DNA of 63,193 bases, the filler included, from Rhabdomonas costata (Eukaryota), in the NCBI GenBank assembly GCA_019059605.1. It is 31 parts of 31 records of this genome, joined end to end, with 100 filler letters (N's around TTAATTAATTAA, not from the genome) between each part and the next. Parts side by side here need not be neighbours in the genome. Positions count along the whole stretch, not along the records: positions 2,048 to 3,989 come from JAHMHO010007118.1; 30 more parts are not named here. One strand, written 5' to 3'. Positions 1 through 34,806 of the stretch are shown here, one piece after another; the stretch's first letter is position 1; each line of letters starts with the position of its first letter. The position numbers were made by a program, and so were the translations under genes. A model generated the notes under the pieces. It ran no database searches. It was not told the DNA's origin and saw nothing but the letters and a program-made list of their open reading frames with translations.

Positions 1-507
1 GTGGCATGGTATCAGAACCACCATCTTGGTTGCCCGATCCGTGACCGTCAACACCTCGTTCACCTCCAAGCCTTTACCAGAAAACTTCCACGGACCTGGC
101 GGCATGGAAACGAAATCCATCGATATAGATTCCCATTTCCTCACTGGCACCTCCAAAACCTTGGTGTGACATTTCGGCAAATGGTGCTCCGATTTGCATC
201 TCTGGCAAACATCACAAGTACGCACGTAAGCTCGTACCTTTTTTTTGATTTTCTTGAACGTGTACGTCCGCTTGATCATGGCGGCCGTCCTGGCCACTCC
301 CCAATGACCTGCTGCAGGTGAGTCGTGGTACCTGGAAATCACCTCTTGTTCTCTCTGGATTGGTACCACAATCTTCCCTGACTCCCAAAGTCTGCCATGG
401 TGCCACTTTGTCGGATCCAAAAGCTCCGCTGTAGTCAAGTTGAAGTACCTCTTCCTCACTACTGGGTCTAACCAGTAATCTGGCCACCAATCGTCTGGCT
501 CCTCCTC
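1..507 (-). mobile_element. Ty3/gypsy integrase fragment (HHCC zinc-binding domain and start of rve core), open frame running off the contig end
   Basis: Manual translation, absent from the ORF track: 169 codons with no stop, EEEPDDWWPDYWLDP...GKIVVP...YHDSPAAGHWGVARTAAMIKRTYTF...VRAYVRTCDVCQRCK...VPVRKWESISMDFV...VLTVTDRATKMVVLIPCH. Classic gypsy H..H..CxxC followed by W.SISMDF. Confidence 0.92.
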
Positions 508-712
508 TTAGGCTACCCTCAGGGGTGCACAGAGTGGTCCATCAAAGACATCAAAGACATCACTTACTAGCAGATGGTTGCGACATTCTCAACTATGTAC
601 TGAGCAACACTGGGAAGTACTTCAGCACTCAGTATCTTAGTCAGGGCTCTCCAAACAACACAAGCACGCTGTTGATTCTCCACTCTCAAACCACTAACGC
701 TGTGGGGCCTCA
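508..712 (-). repeat. Candidate 3' LTR (~205 bp) of the MTase-bearing element
   Basis: On the minus strand it starts TGAGGC and ends GCCTAA (imperfect terminal inverted repeat; GCCTCA expected). It is immediately preceded by a G-rich tract (GGGTGTGTGGGTGAGGGG, 713-730), and its end abuts the integrase frame exactly. No second LTR copy is in the window. Confidence 0.5.
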
Positions 713-1013
713 CCCCTCACCCACACACCCATGCACTCTGTCTCACCGCTGCTCAGGATGGTTGGCTCTCTCTCTCCGCTGTGGATTTGGCGCACCACGA
801 GCGCAGTACCTGGGTCTCGCTGTGGAAGTAGCTCGAGTGGATGAACTTCCACATCCTCTTCTTTAGGCAAGTTGTTCCTTGATTCTGAAATGGAAAACAA
901 AGGTACAAAAAAAACAGGACAAAGCACCGTCTGATAACACACACTCCACTCCTCTTACCCACTTGTGGATAACCCACTCTAACCTCCTATGTGGATAATC
1001 CAATGACTACACT

Positions 1014-1460
1014 CTACACTCCATCAATCTTTTTTCCAACCACGTAGGAAAACACCGTGGCCCACCACGGCCTTGGTCGAAGATTTTCTGTGGATCCTAA
1101 ATACAATCTCCCACTTCACATCTGGCATCTGATTGTCAAATGATACCAGGGGGCTTCAACCCACTCTGGTGTCACCAAAAGCAGCCGAGATCTTTCTCGA
1201 CAGGCCTTTGCCAAAACATGTTGAATGAGGCTCCATGGATGGTTGGCATACAGACACACATATGGGCTCCATCTGTAGACAAACGCATTGCAGACCATCG
1301 CCTCCACATCCATATCGTCAACTGTAAAATACCGCGGCAGCTGATGGTGCTTTGACGACGCAAACAAATCGACACAATGAGTCACCAACAAATTTTGCAC
1401 ATTGCTATGAATATCGTAGGTTCTAACTTCACTTCCTCTTTCGGCCCAAAATCTGGACGT
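1014..1460 (-). pseudogene. DIRS-type N6-adenine DNA methyltransferase (Dam-like) domain of a retrotransposon, degenerate
   Basis: EEVKLEPTIFIAMCK/NLLVTHCVDLFASSKHHQLPRYFT...AMVCNAFVYRWSPYVCLYANHPWSLIQHVLAKACRERSRLLLVTPEWVEAPWY...RPRPWWATVFSYV. It has the DLFAS, LPRY, AF..W, YANPPW-like and P.W...PWY motifs of the DIRS MT domain. One frameshift near 1400, one internal stop at 1116, and NPPW reads NHPW. Confidence 0.85.
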
Positions 1461-1947
1461 ATAGCATTTCCAGCAATGAGGCGCAACATCACCTCTCCAT
1501 ACATATCCTCTTGGGAGTTCTCCTCATCCGTCTCATTCTGTGAATAATCATCAAAATGGACTCGCAGCGTGTCAAGCGACCCCTCTGTGTGCCCTCATTC
1601 ACCAAGCTGTACGGACCTCCTATCCGTCTTTTCTTGCAACTCTCTGAAACGCTCCTCCATGCGTTCTCCACAAGCTCTGGATTCGGGGGAAACTTCAACC
1701 GTTTGCGGCTCCACGTACCGTCTCTCTCCGTACTCTCCTTTCCACAATTCTTCTTTGGCATCGTCCTGCCATAATGCTTCTGACCCATCCGCACTTACTT
1801 CCTCAAAATCTGGCTCTGGACAACGATGGTACTGCTCCGGTTCTACCGCTACAACCTCTTTACCTTTTGAAGCTCTTCGTCATCAAACTCTTCATCTTCC
1901 GCTTCCAGATCGTATTCCTCTGGTCTGGCTGGAACCTCCAAACTCTC
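1461..1947 (-). pseudogene. Acidic linker upstream of the MTase domain (retrotransposon polyprotein remnant)
   Basis: ESLEVPARPEEYDLEAEDEEFDDEE/...VEPEQYHRCPEP...VEPQTVEVSPESRACGERM...EDMYGEV, reading into the MTase. One frameshift and one stop. Homologous to 2900-3400. Confidence 0.75.
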
Positions 1948-2724: not shown

Positions 2725-3989
2725 TCGAATGTAAAAACAGTGCAACCCAATGCTTCGTCATCTGTCTCATCCAACGCATAGTACCTCGGAAGCTGGTGAT
2801 GCAAACAAATCCACACACGGCGTAACCATCAAATTATAGCACATTGCCATAAAAATGGCAGGATCCATATTTACTTCCTCCTCTGGTCCAAAGCGTGGCA
2901 GAGGAATCTGCCCATACAACGTTGGCAATACACTTTACCGTAACGATCATCTCCACATACAACAGACAACTCGTGTCTGTCCTCTGACGGCTCTTCTTCT
3001 GTATCGCTGTGCGGACTCAGGGGTCCCTATCCATCATCTCCTGTCGTGGAACTCTCACTGACTCTCGCCATTTCTTGCAAACCTGCAACCATGCGTTTAC
3101 CCCAAGCTTTCGCTTCGGGCGACACGTCCGCTGCTACCTCTGGCTCCACTTCACGCACTTCACTACTGGATGTGATACCGCTAGCTTCCCTGATACACTC
3201 TAGCCACTTATGCAATTCTGGCGACACTCCATTAATCTGCTCCACACTTGGCTCTGGTTGTTTGTTATACTGTCCCGGATCATCTGCTTCGATCTACTCA
3301 TCTTAGTATTCCTCATCTGCAAGCTCTTCATCCTCCACACTTATGTCGTAATCCAACTGTCTTGATGGAATCGGCAAACACTCTACCGCTTCTGGTTCTC
3401 CACCTTCTTCACCATCTTATGCATCCAGCTCCTCTAAAACTTCATGATTTTCCACTGAACTACCTCCGCAAAACTGTTCTCCTTCTCCAACCAAGACTGG
3501 TCTTTCAGATTCTCGACCAGCTCCAAATTCTGTACTCCGTTCCATCTCCACCTTGACCTTGTCCGTCACTTCCATAACCTTCAGCACCATCTTCGTCGCC
3601 TTCCGGTAACTACAACACTAGCGTGTGCCCTCTTGGCAAATGATGATCTGCCTTGCAACGCTGACAAATGTTACAGGTACGGACGTAAGCCTTCACCTTC
3701 TTCTTTATGTTCCTGAACATGAAAATCCTCTTCAACATGGCTGCGGTCCTTGACACTCCACAATCGTTGTACTTAGAAATGACTTCTTTCTTCTTCTTCT
3801 TGTACGGCACAACAATCTTTCCTGCATCACAAATCCGCCAATGATGCCACTTAGTTGGGTACAGCAACTCCGATGTCGTTAAATTGAAATACTTCCTCCT
3901 AGTCGCTGGATACAACCAGTAGTCAGACCACCAGTCTTCTGTATCTACGTAATCCACTCTCATTGGCGCACAAAGTGACCCACCACCCC
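2725..3989 (-). mobile_element. Degenerate Ty3/gypsy pol 3' part: integrase zinc finger, core apparently deleted, acidic linker, N-terminal half of adenine MTase domain
   Basis: 3963-3610: EDWWSDYWLYP...GKIVVP...VKAYVRTCNICQRCKADHHLPRGH. Then an acidic tract, ECLPIPSRQLDYDISVEDEELADEE...VSPEAKAWGKRM. Then ~2900-2725: PRFGPEEEVNMDPAIFMAMCYNLMVTPCVDLFAS/HHQLPRYYALDETDDEALGCTVFTF. Confidence 0.85.
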
Positions 3990-6023: not shown

Positions 6024-9000
6024 NNNNNNNNNNNNNNNNNNNNNNNNNNNNNNNNNNNNNNNNNNNNTTAATTAATTAANNNNNNNNNNNNNNNNNNNNN
6101 NNNNNNNNNNNNNNNNNNNNNNNGGGCTTCGTCCGCTCTTTAGCCCAAGCGGTTATACCATGGGATAAGGAGAAGCACAATAAGATTCCCGCTTGGGCTA
6201 AAGAGCGGACGAAGCCCCCATTGGGCCCCTCTGAGGTCCCCAGCGCTGAGGTTGCACGATGGATGAGGAAGCTGTGCCCTGATGGTGTGGGTGCTCGCTG
6301 AAAGATCATCTTTTTTGCATTCTTCCTTTAGGCGGTCGTCCTGGAGGTGGAAATTGATAGATCCGCATGACGATTCGGGTTGCATTCGTTAAAATGTTCT
6401 TTCTTAAGGGATACAAAAAACACACCTGAAAAATGCGGAGCAGAAAATGCTGCACATCGGTTGCAAGTGGGCTGGAAACTAATTCGGGATGGATCAGGAA
6501 GCTGTGCTCTGAAGTTGCGTGTGCTCCCCAAGCCCTTCAGCCCAGGGGCTTAGGGCGGGTGGTATGCGCCGGACCGAAACATCTACTTTACTGGCGGTTG
6601 GTAGTCCCACCCCGGAAGGTGAACATTTGCATTCATGACAAATATTTTTCTGTCACGGAAACACGCATCCCTGAGAAAAGCGGAGAATTGAGGGCAATGC
6701 CCTGGAAACCCGTGCCTTTGCTGGCAGTTCTGGATTTGCGCAATGGGTCGTTTTTGAGGTGACCACGGGAGGGCTATGTGCAAGCTGAACGAAGCAGCAG
6801 ACATGAGCTGAGTGCATGAGTGCAGTAGACATACATCTATTACACAACCAGTCGGCTGTTTTCGTGCTGTGCAGCCAGCGGGAAGGCGGAGAGGCCGTGG
6901 TTCCCGCACGACGAGCGGGGCCTGCTGTCGGCGCGGCAGATCTGCGAGAGCCGAGTGAGGAAGCTGCTGTCGGACTTCTCGCCGTTCCCTACCATCAAGC
7001 CCCGAGCGGCACGTCTGGCGTACCGGAACTTCCTGAGACCCTCAGGTTGATGGGCAGATGGCCATGCCATCTGCTACGTTACTGCATACTTTCCTTTCCT
7101 TCAGGAGGAAGTGGGATGATGACTTTGTTGGTATTGTTTGGGAGCAGCTGTGGCCTGGCCCATCTGTTTTGTTCTGGTTTGGTGTGAAGAGCGTGAATAG
7201 TCCGAAGGGCCTTTTTTTTACATACCGGCCGTTACCCAGCGACAGAGAGCTGCACCACAGCTGACCAGAGACTTCAGCCCACGCTGCTCACTACACAGCC
7301 TCTACGAGCTGAAGAGGGGACTCTCACCCCCTCTCACCCTCTTACTTAAATTAGTATAATCAAGTATCCAGCTCGTGAGGGACCTTACCTCCCGCGTCAT
7401 CACACGTTTCCACATCTAAGGCGAGAAAGCATTCCCTGGTGAGCGCCAGATGCAGCCTGAAAAGCTAGAGTATAAGTGAGGACCCACCGTTGCACAAAAA
7501 AATTGATGCCGATGTGTGGTTAAGCTCCGATACGATATCGTTCAACAACCTTTTCTTGTATTTAAATCTAACACCATCACATCAAAGCTATTCGATGATG
7601 CTGGTGAGGGTGCACAGGGGTGTCTGAGGGGCGCTTCGAGGGGTACACGTGGAGCCAGGACGGGGTGCGTATCCGGATCCACAACGGCACACTGTTCTTC
7701 CGCCCCATGCCACCGGACCGCGAGATGAGCATCCTCAGCCCGCGTAGCATGCAGGCTATGTGCGAAGGTGTGCCTTCAGCCTGGTCGGTCTCATTCTCGG
7801 TGTGGTCGTGGTGTCTGTTTATGTCAGAACACTTCAGTTTTCGCAGTGCAGCGGAGCGTGGACTGGTGCCGACCTGGTACGTGGATGATGGTCTGAGCCT
7901 CGACCCAGCAGCCCGGAACTGCCACCAATAGAAGATTAGGGCGCCCGCGTTTGTATCGCTGCGCACCCTGGGATTTCACCCACTTTTGATGCATGGGTTT
8001 TGCGACAAAGCGCGAACACTTTTTACCTTCAGACAGGATTTAATTCCCGGATGTAATCCCCAACACNNNNNNNNNNNNNNNNNNNNNNNNNNNNNNNNNN
8101 NNNNNNNNNNTTAATTAATTAANNNNNNNNNNNNNNNNNNNNNNNNNNNNNNNNNNNNNNNNNNNNGTGGGGTGGGGTTCACAGCAGAGCACAAAGCGCA
8201 AGGCATCACCTTTCCAGTGGAGAACCAGGACTTCTCCCTGCTCACTGTGAGCCGTGGGAGAAGTCCTGGTTCTCCACTGGAAAGGTGATGCCTTGCGCTT
8301 TGTGTTCTGCTGTGAACCCCACCTCACTCCCACCTGGAAAAGACGCCGAGGTGATGTAAGATGTTCTCCCAAGAGGTGCAATTTATCGTACGCATACCAT
8401 GCGTATTCAGACATATATGCGTAAACCGGCCCGCAACTTTTTTAGGCAGGATGCGTCTTCATTGTGTCTGTATGTGGATGTCCGTGTGCGTTACACCACC
8501 GGCATATATCGATAAATACTTGACGCCGCGTTTTTGGCGGCTGTTCACGTTTTCGTGCTTTTCCAATGCGCACAGCGCCCTGCTGTATTTCGATCATACC
8601 ACACACGCTTCCTCGCCTTCCACGCCTTGTTCTCTCACAATACCTCAGATGCCAAAATCTCATATTTGCATGCACGTGTCCCTTGTCTTGTGTTATGTAT
8701 CCTTCTCAGTTTTCTATGTGAGGGCGGACAAATCCAAATTTTCGAGTCTCATTGTGTGTGTGAAGTATGGAGGACGATCTCTCATGGTAGAACTGGAGAC
8801 CTTCTGGATATTCTGCTCGCTCCCATTATAACACGTTGCTATAATATGGGGGTTCTCGCGACCATGATAGGCAATGTAAATTGCCTTCTGTCGATGACTC
8901 ACTTCCAAAAATTAAAAAGCCACACATATGATCATAAATAATCCGTACAGTTCATGAGTCAGTGGCGCAATGGTGGTGTGTATGGGACAGCGTTTTGTCA

Positions 9001-10206
9001 ATGAGTCACAGTACATAATTGTTGTCGAGTTCCATCGTGGTAATTTCTTTGGTAAGGTTGTTCTCACCCAACTTTGGATACCTAATCTTTTTTCTCCATT
9101 TCGATTTCTTCGCAGATGATAATACTTCTGCACAGGACTGTGTTTCTTACGTCCTCTTACCCTCTTCCTCCATCACAGTGCGTCCCCATTCAGCTGCCCC
9201 TGCACACCGAGCAAAATGGAAGATTTCGCGCAGGTGCATCCTTCTTGACGACTTCTTCTTCTCTTTCTCTATCTTCGGGAGTGTCCATTAAAACCCAAAT
9301 CTCCCAATCATTTTTGTATCCAATAACCTACCTTCGGGATAGTTTTCACGTTTAGGTGCACCCAAGATGAGATTGTAGGATTCCGGATGAGAGCCGCCCC
9401 CCCCCCAAAAAAACACGCTAGTAAGAACTACCGGATTGTTTTGTGCGTGCCTTCACCGGTTCCAGTTTCCGTTAAGTTAGGCTAAGTCAAGTGCACCCAC
9501 AAAGAGAATAAACAAATGCTTCACAGTGGCCACCTTGCTTAAAGCTGTCTTCCCACCCGAGCACAGTCTGTAGCATTCAGCATCCATTTGCCACACCCAA
9601 ATCGATCCCTGGGATCCATTTGCCACACCCAAATCGATTCCTTTTGCGCTCACTAGCCTTGGCATTTTCCAAATTACTTGTATTTTGTATTTCGTGTTTT
9701 ATCTGCACATGTACGATGGGGTGGGGCTTCAGGAGGCGAGGGGTCCGACCTGTCCACGGTGGAGGACGTTCGTTGGGGTGTCCGGGAGGAGGTCTCCAGA
9801 ACCGCAGCTGTGGAGGAGGCCGGCGAGCGGCGATTCCGTTGGAGCGCACGGCGAGCCCGGCCGTCCATGTCTCATTGAATGTTTGCATCATGTCTGTGGT
9901 TGCCTGTTGCTTTGTCTCACTGTAACCTGTCGAAGATTGGTTCCCGCGGCTCGCCATCACCTTTCCACATCCTGTGTTTGCGGATATCCATTCCCAGACA
10001 TTACCAAAAAGGATAAGATGCGAAGGATCCCTTTGTTTCTAATGGAGTCATGGCGAACCGCGGGAACCAATCTTCGACAGGTTACAGTGAGACAAAACAA
10101 CACGCANNNNNNNNNNNNNNNNNNNNNNNNNNNNNNNNNNNNNNNNNNNNTTAATTAATTAANNNNNNNNNNNNNNNNNNNNNNNNNNNNNNNNNNNNNN
10201 NNNNNN

Positions 10207-12090
10207 GGATTACGGCCTTTCTAACCTCTACAGAGAGAAATGTCAGCGGTGCCACTTCCACAATTTCCAGAGGTATGGTTAACGTAAGTGCTGTGCAGAG
10301 AAGTGAAAATTTGTTCAATACGGCGACACCGCCAACGTTAGCAGCCACAATTCCGGCGAGTTCTGTAATGTTTTCCGCACCTCCACAGCCACAAATTAAT
10401 GCGACGCGTACGCCTTCTCCAGAGAGGAGGGTGACTCCATCCAGATAAATGTTGGCGTTCAGAGGTTGATGATACACGGGAAGAGGAGGCCGAGGTTACA
10501 TATCACCTTCACCGTCTAGAAGCGGTAGATCCAGAATTCCCTCGTTTACCAGGATTGGAGATGTCTCCCCGCCTCGACCCCCAAGCCCGACTTCCACAGG
10601 GAGCAGGCAGCAGTCACCTTTTCCGAGTTCAAGTTTGGAGAACGCGAAGCCGCATGTCACTTCAAGAGTGTGCATGTATTGTGGAAGTAAGAGCCACGTT
10701 TATAGGGATTGTAAATTGGCTAAGACGGAGTTGGTTCAGAGAAGTGTGCCGAAGGGGTCAGTTGGAGAATTTCAGAAGTGTGTAGATCAGTCAAACGAGT
10801 GGGGGCAGGAGACAGGGACGCTCCCGCCACACCTAAGAGGCCCACTTCGTCCACATTCAGGACGCCAGCCAGCGCAAGTGTTGTGCAGAGAGCTCCAGGC
10901 ACATTACAGCTAAGAATATTGCAGAGACCACCAGAGCCTGTGCTCAGATTAACCAGAGTTGATCAGGTTGAGCAGCCCCGAAGCCCCAGCCCACGCAGAG
11001 TGACACCGGAGGCAGCCCGAGAGAACATTCAGAGTGCCACTCCAGAGGCAAGCGTGGAACAAGTTGAGAAGAAGGGTTCAGAGCCTCAGACCAGTTTCCA
11101 TAAGCCATAAAGTGCACGAGCGGGCTCATTGGTGGTGTTGAAGTCCGATGCAGAGCGGAGCGGTTCCTGACGGGTTCAGAAATTTCATAGGAGTAATAAG
11201 TAAGAGCCGGAATCGGTCCAGAGCAGACGAGAATTGCGGGAAATGTTGTGCGGAGAACCATTAACTAATGCGGAGTTAGGGGTTGTGTGCCACCGTCCAC
11301 TTTCAGATGTTTCCAGAGAGGTCACAAACCACCAATTGACGGTGTTGGGTGCAGAAGGATAAATCTCCTTAAGAGTAAGGGGGGGACATTCGCATAAGAT
11401 TCGGAAGTGGTCAGTGGAGCCAGAAAGTTCCACAGAATTGTGTTAGTGGAGTGTGGTGGCCGTTCCACATGGTGCGGAGTCTCTTCCAGAGTTGATTTCA
11501 GATGGCGCTATTTCCACAGTGGAGGTGGGAGAGGTCACTCCGACTAAGCAGGACCAGCGATCCATAGCTAGGGCTCAGGAGCCTGAGTGGAAGGTCAAAA
11601 GGAATTTGCGAGATTCTCCCAGGAATGAAGTTGAGAAGTTAATTAAGGAGGTGGACCACAGCATTTGTGGCCCCCCTTGTGCGGTGTTACCAACACCTCC
11701 AGAGATAGAGAAGTTAAACCAAAAATTTGCTCACATATTTCCAGCGTCAGTTTCGGGAGGTTACCCACTTCGAGGAGAACGGACCACAGGATTAATTTGA
11801 AGCCGGACAGTAAGGTACCAGCCCAGAGGCTGTACCGAGTGTCCCCGGCGGAAGATGTAGAATTGCGGAAGCAGCTGAAGAGTCTCCAGAAGCTTGGTTT
11901 TATAGAGCCAGCAACCTCGCCTTATGGCGCAGTGGTGCTGTTCGTTCCAAAGGCCAACGGTAAGTTGCGGTTGTGCGTGGATTACGTACCGTTGAATGCG
12001 ATAACTGTTACAGATGCGTACAATTTACCCCGAATTGACGAGATGATTGGTGAAAGGCGAAGTTGTTTTCCAAACTAGATTTGCATGCGG
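10207..12090 (+). mobile_element. Degenerate Ty3/gypsy retrotransposon: gag C-terminus with CCHC zinc knuckle and N-terminal reverse transcriptase
   Basis: CMYCGSKSHVYRDC (~10670-10710). RT start DHRINLKPDSKVPAQRLYRVSPAEDVELRKQLKSLQKLGFIEPATSPYGAVVLFVPKANGKLRLCVDYVPLNAITVTDAYNLPRIDEMI, then SKLDL in a shifted frame. Stops and frameshifts throughout. Confidence 0.93.
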
Positions 12091-15000
12091 GATAAATTGT
12101 ACGCATCTGTAACAGTTATCGCATTCAACGGTACGTAATCCACACACAACCNNNNNNNNNNNNNNNNNNNNNNNNNNNNNNNNNNNNNNNNNNNNTTAAT
12201 TAATTAANNNNNNNNNNNNNNNNNNNNNNNNNNNNNNNNNNNNNNNNNNNNGGGTTGTTGGAGTATAGCCTTTGTGACCAAAGTGGCCCATCGCCCGAAC
12301 TGGAGTACTCGTGAATGCACTCTCCTCGGGGCAGCGCATTTGGCTTGTGTGTCATATCGGCTGGATGTGCTAGTGCTTCAGATACCTCGTTCAGGGGATT
12401 TCAGAAAGAAAATTGAGGGACCACGCATTATAACATTTTGGTAGCGAAAGCGCCGAACCGCAAACACTGTGTCTGTGCTGGGATGGGGCCTGGGAATCCT
12501 AAACTTCCAGAGTGGAACTATAAAGTGATGGCCTTTTCCTCGGATGTCAAGCTACTGAAGGGCAAAACAGTGCTCGCGTGGTTTTAATAGGGTTATGGAG
12601 GCATCTCTCTTGCAATGACCTTCGAACTCATGTGCAGTTGTGTCAGATACATTGCCCGTATTGAACTTCTTTTGGTTTGGCTGTCGACGGCCCACCGCAC
12701 TCGTGATGGGTGGGAGAACGCCCGCAGCCTTGTTAAGGTTGTTGGATGGCTCTGTCTCTTGCGATAGCTTGTAACCTTTTGTTCAATACCGGTGGATCTG
12801 TTTAACTTGGATGTGCTGCTTTTCGGAATGCCTGTTGCCTCCTCAGAAAACTGTCCCAACCCACCGCTTGTCTACGTCTCTTGGTTTTAGCAAAGGTTTT
12901 AGCAAAAGAATCTTTTTAGTATTGGGGTTTTCATATTCTTTCGTTCCCCGTGGTGAAACGCTCTAGTTGGGGTCACCGCCAGCATGCAGCTGGTTGGCAG
13001 TGCCTTTTATGGCAGTGGAGCCAAGAGTGACGCAGCTGGATTCTACGGGGGTATGTCCCGCCCTCCTCCCTGCGGACACAAAACGGAAGGTCTTTGGTAA
13101 ATTCTGAGGTGCACATCCAAGTCCAGTAGTGAACTAGTGAGTTTATTTTATCAATACCTTGGTGATTGCCAGTGGTACTCATGCTGACCCCACCGCTCAA
13201 TTGTCATTCGGATTATGATTTTGGGCCCAAAGATTAGGGCCAGTTCAGTTGAGAATGAGTTTGATGGGATAGGGACTGCACCCGACAAACCACATCTCTG
13301 GCCGATTGCAGAACCGTACAATGCATTTCCCTACGCAGCTGCCGCTCTCACCTGAAGGTGGACGAGGAGAACACTACGGGCCGCACGCCCCCGGTGTGCA
13401 TTCCGATTCTCCGCAGCAGCTGCACAAAGCTGGAGGCTCGGGTGCCCAGCTGAATGAATCCCACCACACCCAAGGGTACCAGTGGGACCAGGGCTGGCGG
13501 CACGAACTCCAGGGTGAAGCCAATGTCCACTGCGAAAAAATGTACGGAGCCGGTGAAACTTGGAGAGCGCTGCCTTATTGCCACTGTATGCGCCAGGAGT
13601 GACACATGGCCAACGCAGTCCTGCGGTGATGCAACAGTGGGCGAAGCGGACTGAAGGACTAATGCACCAAATAGCAAAAATAATAGGAGGAGAATCCTTC
13701 CAAATACGCATTAACAGTGAAAATACAAAAATTAGCATCTTCAAAAACACTCCACGAGACCATCATCTCCCCACCACAGTCCGGCACAGCACCAAGTAAC
13801 AGCGGAGAGGGAAAAAAATGGAAGGATGGAGGCAATGAAAGAGCACACAATAGAAGAAGAGTGGCAGCTTCTTGTGGTGTTGTGACACGCATAGCACATG
13901 AATCTCGATTCCTTTGGGTGGTATACGTGACCGTTAGTTTTGGACCCTCCAGCAACGCATCGGACACTCAGCGCTGGAAAATGATACCGCAGCATTGTGC
14001 ACTGAAGGAGTGCACGCGTGTAAGCGCACTCACGTTCTCCTCTTCTCTTTGCATCTGTGCGGCTGTTGTGTGCGCCGGACTTTGAACACTGGACTTGTGT
14101 GTGTATGATTTCTTCTCCTGAAAACCATTCTTAACTCATGTGCAACGGAGCTTGAGCGGCATCCCCATTGTTGGTGCTGCTTTTTAAAGCGCGGNNNNNN
14201 NNNNNNNNNNNNNNNNNNNNNNNNNNNNNNNNNNNNNNTTAATTAATTAANNNNNNNNNNNNNNNNNNNNNNNNNNNNNNNNNNNNNNNNNNNNGGGGTT
14301 TTGTTGAGATTGATTGGAACGCAAGTTGGTCCAACAGCAATGGTGTTGCAAAAACCTTTGCACATCTGAAGAGAAAATGGGACCAAGAAGATACGAGGGC
14401 GTCGAAGAGACTGGAACACCTTACACGCAATGGAACAGCGAGGAAACCACAACCCGCCAGGTTCGGCCGGAAGCGGCTCCACCTGAACATCGAAAAAAAA
14501 AGGGTCTCCAAAAAAGTCTGCGCCCTACCGCCAGAGCAGCTGCATGAGAGCAGCATTGACATGACCACATTGCCGCGTAAGATTAGTTCAATTGAGCCAA
14601 AAACCATCTTCATTGGGATCTTTTCCGGGGTTCCGTTCTCCTGCTTCCAAGCGGGATTGCCAACTCAGAAAGTGGTTTACGATGCTTCGGCCGATGTTCT
14701 CTGCGCATTCCAGCTGTTCTTACATAACTGTTCGGTTGCTTGCCATACAGTCTGCAAGAAGGTGTGCTGGATAAACAAGCAGCCCTCATAAAGGGGTTTG
14801 GTAGTCAGCGCACTTTCCACAGCACCCGGACAATGGTCGTTTCCTCCAAGGACTTTACCCATCATAGCATAGTGGGAGTCGATTTTCGATTACCAATCGT
14901 CGATTAGTTTCCCGGCTCAACGTGCATTTGCAGGAAAATTCCGGTTTTTGATTATTGAATTCCTGCCTTCTGTTTGCCCAATTACCGCTTGCCGAAGGGC

Positions 15001-32349: not shown

Positions 32350-34806
32350 GTACGCACCTTCTTCTTTTCTCAAAGAGACGGGGGGTCGAACGGACGGGGG
32401 AGGGGAGTGTGGAGTGACCCGCAATTCAATGATAATACATGATTTGGGGTGAGGGTTCAGCTGAAGTCATGCCAGCGAGTGCTGTCAACAGGCTTGTCCA
32501 CGTGACAGCCTATTGACTGCAAAAAATAGGACAAAGGCCATGACGAAGGACACGTGACTCCTCCTCCTCCTCCAAANNNNNNNNNNNNNNNNNNNNNNNN
32601 NNNNNNNNNNNNNNNNNNNNTTAATTAATTAANNNNNNNNNNNNNNNNNNNNNNNNNNNNNNNNNNNNNNNNNNNNGGTTGTTGGGATTGTTTTCGATTG
32701 CTTTTGGTCTCTAATATACGGGAAAGAATCGACAGCATCCGAGTTGCAGCAAGGTGCAAGAGATGTTGACCGTTGCTATTAACAATGGGCTGGTCCATGG
32801 TGGGATCGTCTCCACCCGCCTTCTTTTCTCCGTTCAGTCCTGCATCACAGCTTGCAGGGCAGTGCCAGTGGAATTTTCTTTTGAACAGCTCCACAGTGTC
32901 GTTGAGGCTTCCCGATGAACAATTGCAACGATTGACACGGCAGCCATTCTGATCCACTGGAACGCCTCCCGCAGCAGCGGCTCGGCCAGGCTGGAGGTGC
33001 CGTTCCTTTTCCATATCTCTCTCATCTCGGCTTAGTCTCTTCTTCCCTCCTTTCTTACATGTTAATGTGCCATCTTTAACGCTTAAGGTCATTTGACGAC
33101 AGCAGATGTGAGATGACGTAATGCTGCGAGGCAGCTAAACAAACTCGCACGTTTGCAGGGATTGGGGACGCCGGAATCGATAGCTTACCCTCTCTTCATC
33201 TCGTCCTGAGCATACCCTTAACCTATTGTCCATGCAACGTAGAAGAACAAGTGCAGTGCCCAGCTCGTGCCAATCAGCGGTTTCCTACGGCGGGTGCTTT
33301 GCATTTCCCGAAGACGAAAAAGACTGCACACTTCAAACTATTTAAACAGGGTTATATAATGTCGTAAGGTTTCCAGGATCCTTCCAAGAAATACAGCTCT
33401 GAACATCTATCTTACAGTTGCAGACATCTGCTGCCTAACAATGAAAAATAGAGAGGTGCAATGGAAAGTGGTGCAGGTTTACCATGCTATTGTAGCTGAA
33501 GTGGCGAGAAAGGTAGTTCAGAGCTTCCTAATGGGGCCATGTTTTCTCCAGGCATGCGAGCTGGCCGTGAGGATCGTCGCGCTGGTTCGATAGAATCCTT
33601 TCCGCGTGCAATTGGCAGTGTGCCACTAGATGGCGTGGTGTACCACCATTGGAAGTGAGGTCATGTCCCGCTTCATGGTGTGTTTGTGTGTTCCTTCATA
33701 GTGTCTTGCGTGTACATTGTCCGCGATGTGCACATATTGAGCCAGCGCCAGAAATGCCACCACTCAATATCAGGAGCCTGAATTGCCAAAAAAAAATACC
33801 GGGACGGGGGGATTCTACACGCATGCAGACAGCTGCCTTTTGTGGATGTGTAAATGAGTAAGTAAATGCGAATCCCCGAGTGATTTTAATATACATATCA
33901 CAATGCGCATGAGCGCACCCCCACGATGCACACCCCTCCTCTAAAACCATCGCACCCGCTCCACCTCCTCCATCTTTTCCATTTTCGAAGTGTGTGATTG
34001 TTTTCGAGTGTCCACACGCGCAAGCATTTCAATTCATCTCTACATCTCTAATTTCGTATTTTGTCCGTCACATTCATTAGATTTGTCAGAAATCTCATGG
34101 CATTATTCACTTCCTCTCCAATCTTTGTCCATATTTTTAGTTCTAGTCCCTTATCCTTGGCTCCGACTGTTTTTTGTGAGCGCTTTCTCCCTCTCCTTCG
34201 TTCATTCTCTTCCTGTTCAGGTTCTGCTCCTCTACATTCCTTGGTGAACCTTCCCTTCACATGCCCTCTTCTCTTGCCTCTCTCCCTGTCACTTAGTGGG
34301 CTCTTGTGTTATTTTGTAGTAAAAAAGATTATCGCATTGCCTTTTTGCGTACGCTGAACAATCCATGCGCTGGATTATTTGCGACAACAACAATCACTGC
34401 TTTTTTGTTTCTTTCTTGAATGCGAATCGGTGATTGCTTGGATCGTTGGATGGTGCGGTTGAGCTAGCAACCTTGCAGGTGTGTTTTCTCCAATTATCTT
34501 CTCCTCCGCTCCATTCGCGAAGGTCCTTGGGGAAATTATCCCCAGAGTCAGCGTGCTGCTGCGGATGAGAAAATAATTGGAGAAAACACACCTGCAAGGT
34601 TGCTAGCTCAACCGCACCACNNNNNNNNNNNNNNNNNNNNNNNNNNNNNNNNNNNNNNNNNNNNTTAATTAATTAANNNNNNNNNNNNNNNNNNNNNNNN
34701 NNNNNNNNNNNNNNNNNNNNGTTGTGAAATAGGTGGTGATGGTAATGGGGAAGAAGAATGGCAAGACATAAACAAGTGAGGCGTTCATCATCTCAACGGT
34801 CCGGTA

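Follow-up and report, generated by a model that had tools for sequence, protein, structure and literature searches.

The window analyzed here is a stretch of 63,193 nucleotides from Rhabdomonas costata (GenBank assembly GCA_019059605.1) that is not one locus, since it joins 31 contigs of 1934-1955 bp separated by N/TTAATTAATTAA spacers. The finding lies in contig 2 (2048-3989; JAHMHO010007118.1), with contig 1 (1-1947) as the comparison. On the minus strand of contig 2, an integrase zinc finger region (3981-3604) is followed by an acidic linker (3603-2935) and the N-terminal half of a methyltransferase-like domain (2934-2727), the order and orientation described in an earlier note on this DNA. 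We consider it highly probable, from sequence comparison with relatives, that positions 2725-3989 (minus strand) are a dead and rearranged pol fragment of a Ty3/gypsy retrotransposon of the DAM-LTR class, that is, a long terminal repeat (LTR) element carrying a Dam-like methyltransferase domain (DAM), and that the order integrase, linker, methyltransferase is native to that element.

The integrase N-terminal region of copy 2 (3604-3981, minus strand) matches the Pfam family Integrase_H2C2 (PF17921) over 3960-3613 (E value, 1.6e-9; 38.2 bits against a cutoff of 25.5), and its homology to P0151, one of the database relatives cited here by label, spans 3981 to 3604 (amino acids [aa] 42-170; 53.8% identity; E, 7e-40). 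The GSLCAP..DWW.DYWL lead-in is kept and the H2C2 finger is degenerate: both His ligands are gone (H to N, plus an 18-nt deletion over the His pair), the CxxC half alone survives at 3675-3664, and an in-frame stop stands at 3612-3610. In contig 1, the integrase piece (1-543, minus strand) leaves the contig at base 1, matches PF17921 over 507-1 (E, 6.1e-19) and P0151 aa 41-215 (65.7% identity; E, 3e-81), and comprises a DGPLCAPLRV lead-in with one stop, an intact H2C2 finger (CxxC at 216-205), and the opening residues of the rve core. The two pieces share 60% identity over 117-120 aa (E, 5e-45 and 2e-46) and 68.3% nucleotide identity over 338 nt, and their assignment to a single integrase family is borne out by PF17921 in both.

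The methyltransferase-like domain is present in copy 2 as its N-terminal half (2727-2934, minus strand), assigned to the DIRS-type adenine-N6 methyltransferase-like family by homology to P0151 (aa 709-753; 57.8% identity; E, 2.6e-13) and also matching P0001, P0004, and P0006. It holds the N-terminal helix, the DLFAS motif (2811-2797), and HHQLPRYY, has a frameshift near 2800, and ends at 2727, ahead of the NPPW motif. Copy 1 (1017-1594, minus strand; found by phmmer and P0151 homology) forms the C-terminal end of pol, with a frameshift near 1395, DLFAS at 1370-1356, an in-frame TGA at 1118-1116, and a natural stop at 1016-1014; it aligns with P0151 aa 740-869 across the in-frame stop (59.2% identity; E, 7e-49), and its frame terminates at the place homologous to that of the relatives, ...FSYVVGKKIDGV-stop. 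The catalytic motif of copy 1 reads NHPW (1244-1233) where relatives read NPPW, and an intact N/D-P-P-aromatic motif is found in neither window copy. The remaining 29 contigs contain no other copy of the linker, methyltransferase, or integrase detectable by tblastn at E values of ≤0.01.

Between these two domains in copy 2 lies a low-complexity linker of about 223 codons (2935-3603, minus strand), defined by its acidic composition and by islands that match contig 1. Aspartate plus glutamate make up 20 to 42% of its open pieces, stops occur at 3419-3417 and 3305-3303, and the conserved islands (3383-3309 and 3293-3069) show 52% identity to contig 1 over 25 aa and 34% over 73 aa; most of the linker is unalignable between the two copies. 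The corresponding linker of copy 1 (1598-1947, minus strand; 27 to 44% aspartate plus glutamate) leaves the contig at 1947. Two short island motifs within this generally fast-evolving linker, (V/I)P.RP.E.Y..(V/A)ED and (V/I)(S/T)P(E/Q)..W...R(M/I), recur at 1696-1657 and 3128-3089 and, by eye, in P0151 and P0160; a cleavage site and a docking motif are among the possibilities for their function.

All three peptide pairs quoted earlier as linking the two copies are present: the ECLPIPSRQLDYDISVEDEE/ESLEVPARPEEYDLEAEDEE pair has 52% identity over 25 aa, the VSPE..W/C G.RM pair has 77.5% identity over 40 nt, and the FGPxEEV...VDLFAS pair has 48% identity over 31 aa and then 85% over 13 aa. The methyltransferase blocks of contigs 1 and 2 are thus 48, 85, and 52% identical over 31, 13, and 25 aa, respectively, the last of these beginning with HHQLPRYY and carrying the homology between copies to 2727. 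Nei-Gojobori counts were made on ungapped alignable blocks and evaluated by Fisher tests. The proportion of nonsynonymous differences (pN) was below that of synonymous differences (pS) in every part: 0.19 against 0.82 in the integrase (ratio, 0.23; P = 3e-21), 0.25 against 0.74 in the methyltransferase (ratio, 0.34; P = 2e-9), and 0.33 against 0.62 in the linker (ratio, 0.53; P = 0.005). Because nonsynonymous change is rarer than synonymous change throughout, the copies appear to have diverged under constraint, and the direction is clear for most of their divergence, that of the methyltransferase included; synonymous sites are saturated, and these counts therefore yield no reliable dN/dS value of the kind that the earlier note had called for. 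Its impression that the methyltransferase is better conserved than the linker holds insofar as most of the linker is unalignable, but within the alignable blocks, where 39 of 69 methyltransferase and 22 of 51 linker residues are identical, the difference in pN is not significant (P = 0.19). Contig 1 carries a second copy of the element, which would have diverged mostly under purifying selection and then decayed.

The architecture itself is best seen in relatives. A phmmer search with the translation of 1400-1119 against a database of 1.84 billion representatives returned 1272 proteins at E values of ≤1e-3, 63 of them at ≤1e-10 (best E, 3e-27, at 60% identity), and the 150 best were profiled with Pfam. 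A search for longer proteins with the methyltransferase gave a single match, P0038, and one with the contig 1 integrase piece gave 10, four of which have a C-terminal DAM as called by a hidden Markov model built from the alignment of DAM relatives; the remaining six, at 299-591 aa, are fragmentary and stop short of the DAM position. Integrase and DAM share one frame in P0151, P0153, P0156, and P0160. Both the window integrase and the window DAM have their closest relative in the first of these (875 aa), whose single open frame, after the same lead-in as that in the window (GPLCAPLRV..DWW.DYWL), runs through H2C2 (97-155), rve (198-273), SH3_Tf2-1 (GPY/F; 399-461), an acidic linker, and DAM (718-867); this is the span from rve core through GPY/F and linker to methyltransferase that the earlier note had hoped to find. 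P0153 (1763 aa) extends the order upstream, with protease, reverse transcriptase (RT), RNase H, integrase, SH3, linker, and DAM, and P0156 and P0078 are organized similarly. SH3 precedes DAM in P0078, P0006, P0017, P0032, and P0043 (5 of the 150 best DAM relatives), and DAM is the final domain in all integrase- or SH3-linked relatives. No chromodomain was detected by Pfam in P0151, P0153, P0156, P0160, or P0078 at E values of ≤0.01 or 0.001, and the window is without that region. The element that carried the window DAM is also of gypsy type in its other parts, with H2C2 in both contigs, the start of rve in contig 1, and an RT N-terminal fragment in contig 2. The complete fusion is seen in relatives (P0151, P0153, P0156, and P0078) and not in the window itself. 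Evidence mainly from outside the window supports the earlier inference that the methyltransferase is a lasting component of this diversified gypsy family and did not come to lie there by chance.

A different origin of this neighborhood would be the nested insertion of a DIRS element, of the tyrosine recombinase type, that brought its methyltransferase to lie beside gypsy integrase fragments. DIRS elements are the classical carriers of the domain according to Iyer et al. 2016 (PMC4738411) and a recent preprint (bioRxiv 10.64898/2026.05.21.726589); RVT_1 occurs in 17 and RT_RNaseH in 11 of the 150 best relatives, DAM directly follows RT/RNase H with no integrase between in 19 relatives, and in contig 1 the methyltransferase lies upstream of the integrase with 470 unexplained bases between them. 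We nevertheless regard nesting as highly improbable. In a maximum-likelihood tree of 143 DAM domains, made by a quick search with support from the Shimodaira-Hasegawa-like approximate likelihood ratio test (SH-aLRT) only, one branch (SH-aLRT, 96) splits the 8 integrase-linked domains from the 19 that are RT/RNase H linked, and the window DAM falls within a supported set of 62 rows that includes all of the former (8/8) and none of the latter (0/19). P0151, the nearest row to the window DAM by tree path and the nearest relative of the integrase (66% identity), has both domains in one frame, the same neighbors are kept in two diverged copies, and a Pfam scan of 90 window pieces (11 pieces plus 79 of the 142 open reading frames of at least 110 aa) detected no tyrosine recombinase.

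The native order does not extend to the particular joins in contig 2. At the junction at 3600-3606 (minus strand), homology to contig 1 and P0151 stops at 3604, and the rve core and SH3/GPY-F are absent, amounting to approximately residues 171-495 of P0151, or about 975 bp; the caveat raised earlier, that the integrase core is missing between zinc finger and linker, was well placed. The linker reading frame past the join is one base off the integrase frame, the integrase frame itself remaining uninterrupted across about 30 codons rich in acidic residues and Gly, and the low-complexity sequence there allows no firm alignment to P0151. The P.RP..Y island lies about 77 codons past the join in contig 2 and about 87 codons past the corresponding point of P0151, which places the right-hand breakpoint near the SH3/linker border. 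On these comparisons, a zinc finger that passes directly into the linker is not a native feature of the family. On its other side, the truncated DAM abuts, tail to tail at 2722-2727, a plus-strand fragment of a related gypsy element (2273-2722) that comprises the protease-RT interdomain region and the RT N terminus as far as C.DY..LN, interrupted by frameshifts and stops. This fragment matches P0153 aa 406-553 (32% identity; E, 5e-14) and also P0078, and it is 69.3% identical over 479 nt to 11522-11998 in contig 6, where a third fragment of the superfamily (11522-12151, plus strand), covering the same regions, matches P0078 aa 42-142 (45.5% identity; E, 1e-21).

It is possible, if on balance doubtful, that amplification or assembly created the joins at about 3604 and at 2722-2727, in which case contig 2 alone would be silent on the architecture. 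Self-complementary (fold-back) stretches of 65-213 nt lie within 10 nt of a contig end in 8 of the 31 contigs (contigs 4, 5, 6, 10, 11, 17, 22, and 31, with contig 5 affected at both ends; examples are 8167-8327, 9901-10106, 11969-12151, and 34451-34619); these palindromes seem to have arisen as artefacts, systematically, in sequencing or assembly, and they call for caution over unusual joins in this data set. Contig 6, with its related RT fragment, is among the affected contigs, and its terminal palindrome has arms at 11969-12035 and 12085-12151 (67 nt, 96% complementary). Moreover, contig 2 links oppositely oriented parts of one superfamily, as inverted amplification chimeras do, and several unexpected joins occur within the 3.9 kb of contigs 1 and 2. 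Set against this, a self-palindrome check of all 31 contigs found no inverted repeats in contigs 1 and 2, the heavy decay on both sides of each join fits old genomic rearrangement equally, and retrotransposon graveyards commonly contain internal deletions as well as fragments that are nested or inverted. Our main conclusion is unaffected by such artefacts because it is based on independent open reading frames. The earlier note had allowed that its reading would fall if the junction near 3600 were a chimera and no other copy joined integrase to linker and methyltransferase; P0151, P0153, P0156, and P0160 all join integrase to DAM in frames of their own, whatever the junction in contig 2 may be.

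The left side of the junction admits one further explanation. In contig 1, the bases after the last codon in common with contig 2 read GTGAGG, resembling a splice donor (139-147, minus strand, opposite 3604-3606). GTRAG occurs eight times in the 1947 nt of that contig 1 strand, giving a chance of about 2% for an occurrence within ±2 nt of the point, and the match was noticed post hoc. The hexamer allows, and does not show, descent of copy 2 from spliced RNA; we think it improbable that the core-less copy is a reverse-transcribed, spliced subgenomic RNA, from a lineage or host that might lie outside the five DAM-LTR lineages described to date. Were it so, a DAM-LTR lineage would express the linker-DAM module apart from the integrase.

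Several observations weigh against reading 2725-3989 as a fragment of an element with this native order, or against assigning DNA methylation to it. In contig 1, the integrase piece lies downstream of the methyltransferase, about 470 bases away, so that contigs 1 and 2 are not colinear; the simple model gives no explanation of this arrangement, which might come from the nesting of one copy in another or from further rearrangement. No LTR, gag, or primer-binding site is seen in these 1.9-kb contigs, which hold no element end. When the linker was compared with the post-SH3 linkers of P0151 and P0160, one of eight comparisons beat all 300 shuffles and one further comparison was equaled by 7 of 300, and the stretch just past the 3604 join gave nothing above composition shuffles. 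Both window copies are, as judged from their sequences, pseudogenes that would be incapable of activity, since copy 1 has NHPW, a frameshift, and a stop and copy 2 is truncated ahead of the motif. The methyltransferase and linker pieces of the window match no Pfam family at E values of ≤1, for which reason the Dam label comes from the relatives, and a profile of the relatives' alignment run against PDB sequences gave one weak and uninformative match (DUF4827; E, 0.0034). To these may be added the RNA-modifying character of the structural neighbors and two published results on the activity of the domain, which are taken up below.

The stretch of contig 1 between the pol stop and the integrase piece (544-1016, minus strand) has no open reading frame, no repeat elsewhere in the window (blastn returned the self-hit only), and no useful Pfam family. 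Degraded RNase H, which would have put DAM immediately beside an RNase H-integrase unit, was considered for 545-1016 from weak colinear tblastn matches (E, 0.4 to 17) and was rejected as unsupported: two of four RNase H queries were run in frameshift-aware alignments against null windows from other contigs, and they scored 34 (null mean, 34.0; 54 of 120 as high) and 33 (null mean, 32.9; 49 of 120 as high). A match resembling the RT N terminus in 544-1016 (P0078 aa 57-129; E, 0.01) was likewise set aside, being backed by neither the contig 6 fragment nor P0153. Inspection by eye alone picked out purine-rich sequence and then TG at about 962-935 (minus strand), conceivably a polypurine tract with the beginning of an LTR.

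The domain is, on the evidence of its relatives and of a predicted structure, a DIRS-type "Dam/PCIF1-like" adenine-N6 methyltransferase-like domain, similar to PF05869 and with a PCIF1-like fold. PF05869 (Dam) is found in 53 of the 150 best relatives (best E, 1.3e-11) and SH3_Tf2-1 in 5, and PF12237 (PCIF1) is found in 6 (best E, 2.4e-9). The AlphaFold model of P0001, the closest complete relative (predicted local distance difference test, 91.8; predicted template modeling score, 0.87), gave 16 Foldseek matches in the PDB at E values of ≤1e-3, with query-normalized TM-scores of 0.45-0.62, all of them KsgA/Dim1-type adenosine dimethyltransferases or PCIF1/CAPAM; KsgA had the best E value (3.7e-5) and PCIF1/CAPAM had the highest TM-scores (0.56-0.62, at 15 to 16% identity). 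These neighbors are Rossmann-class adenine-N6 methyltransferases that modify RNA, not DNA. No Dam-type DNA adenine methyltransferase is among the 50 PDB matches listed, and the fold search therefore cannot separate DNA from RNA substrates. Of 142 domains of the family, 99 have NPP[WFY] and 126 have DxFA; among the 8 integrase-linked domains, NPPW is kept by 7 and DxFA by all.

Three side observations concern motifs and context in this family. The NHPW variant recurs among the 142 domains in P0007, P0127, and P0040 (YANHPW twice and YINHPW once), which may reflect decay of these copies as well or a mutational hot spot at this site. In 13 of 142 domains (e.g., P0079, P0115, and P0063), FPPF replaces NPP-aromatic, that is, the catalytic Asn is gone; for this subset only, the sequences fit the view of Iyer et al. 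2016 (PMC4738411) that the copies in DIRS elements are inactive. P0138 (391 aa) has an Exo_endo_phos domain, of the LINE-type endonuclease kind, upstream of DAM (E, 8.3e-8), suggesting from its domain order that DAM is also present in a non-LTR context.

In intact members of the class, pol comprises protease, RT, RNase H, integrase (H2C2, rve, and SH3/GPY-F), a disordered acidic linker of about 220 aa, and a C-terminal DAM of about 150 aa; DAM would presumably be made as the tail of Gag-Pol and ride with the integrase. In that position its presumed substrate would be adenine in the DNA of the element itself, so that insertions would carry N6-methyladenine (6mA), which may act as a mark of active chromatin in hosts with AMT1 that the element would exploit. 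This mechanism follows what is proposed for such elements in bioRxiv 10.64898/2026.05.21.726589, in which the domain is held to write 6mA on element DNA, so as to exploit the chromatin of active host genes, and is assigned a prokaryotic Dam origin; we hold it tentatively, at somewhat short of even chances.

An alternative, which is unlikely without being negligible, is that the domain is not a DNA 6mA writer and either acts on RNA, for instance, in the manner of PCIF1, on an adenosine next to the cap or inside the element's own transcript, or is noncatalytic, as a binder of template RNA or a PCIF1 mimic at RNA polymerase II. This would fit KsgA and PCIF1/CAPAM as best structural neighbors and the occurrence of PF12237 among the relatives, but PF05869 occurs in far more of them, and the fold search is blind to the distinction between DNA and RNA substrates. 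Iyer et al. 2016 (PMC4738411) placed the DIRS methyltransferase in the PCIF1 clade, considered DIRS copies probably inactive, and suggested template-transcript binding or PCIF1 mimicry; 43 of 142 domains are without NPP[WFY], the 13 FPPF domains among them, but the near-complete retention of NPPW and DxFA in the integrase-linked clade argues for catalysis. The preprint (bioRxiv 10.64898/2026.05.21.726589) supplies evidence on both sides: eukaryotic DAMs expressed in dam-deficient E. coli raised no 6mA, and DAM-LTR insertions were 6mA enriched, and more highly expressed, in two ichthyosporeans, an enrichment that speaks against a role confined to RNA.

DAM-LTRs were described by Fernandez-Moreno and coworkers (bioRxiv 10.64898/2026.05.21.726589, May 2026), whose preprint claims the first such identification; we found no earlier report in the literature of gypsy elements with this domain. 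Those researchers concluded that Ty3/gypsy elements captured DAM from DIRS at least four times and distinguished five lineages, namely, Chlorophyta chromovirus-like, Chloro-Ochrophyta (with DAM between RT and integrase), Ichthyosporea, Pyropia, and Euglena. Because the class is already described, the window copies are additional, decayed members. As in the DAM-LTRs of that text, a Ty3/gypsy pol (RT, RNase H, and DDE integrase) is combined with a DIRS-derived methyltransferase-like domain, the N-P-P-aromatic pocket is kept at the family level, and, as stated there for the ichthyosporean lineage, a chromodomain is wanting (by Pfam analysis of P0151, P0153, and P0156). On the side of differences, the present family places DAM at the end of pol, behind SH3 and an extended acidic linker, an order that the preprint text states for no lineage, and the window copies are dead fragments.

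Other systems share parts of this arrangement. The DIRS1 group, with RT, RNase H, and methyltransferase plus a tyrosine recombinase, has the same methyltransferase-like domain family, but the window family has a DDE integrase with H2C2 and SH3/GPY-F, and its domain comes after the integrase and not after RNase H; the methyltransferase is preceded in the window by an acidic linker and in relatives by an integrase, and the tree separates the two groups. PCIF1/CAPAM is the best structural neighbor by TM-score, lends its Pfam family to 6 of 150 relatives, and gives its name to the clade in which Iyer et al. 2016 (PMC4738411) place the DIRS methyltransferase, but it is a cellular protein of about 700 aa with a WW domain that acts on capped mRNA, whereas the domain of the present family spans about 150 aa and closes a retrotransposon pol. 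Gypsy-DNMT3 and SymbioLINE-DNMT (de Mendoza et al. 2018, PMC5890265, as cited in the preprint) also have a DNA-modifying domain appended to a retrotransposon coding region, but those domains are C5-cytosine methyltransferases, a different enzyme family that makes a different mark.

Elsewhere in the window, two features of other kinds were recorded as the sole other Pfam matches among the 79 open reading frames scanned: a histidine kinase in contig 27 (54220-55029, plus strand; HisKA E, 2.8e-10; HATPase_c E, 9.8e-27) and a filamin repeat in contig 21 (40887-41465, plus strand; E, 4.2e-9). Scans of the window for Rfam families at gathering score and for tRNA genes found nothing.

In summary, the window adds two diverged, decayed copies to the DAM-LTR class, and their relatives add a clear order of integrase, SH3, acidic linker, and C-terminal DAM. 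The value of the finding lies in the confirmation of a described class and in a warning on rearranged or chimeric contigs. A retrotransposon that encodes an adenine methyltransferase could mark itself with a modification belonging to host chromatin, and such elements bear on how mobile elements adapt to host epigenomes.

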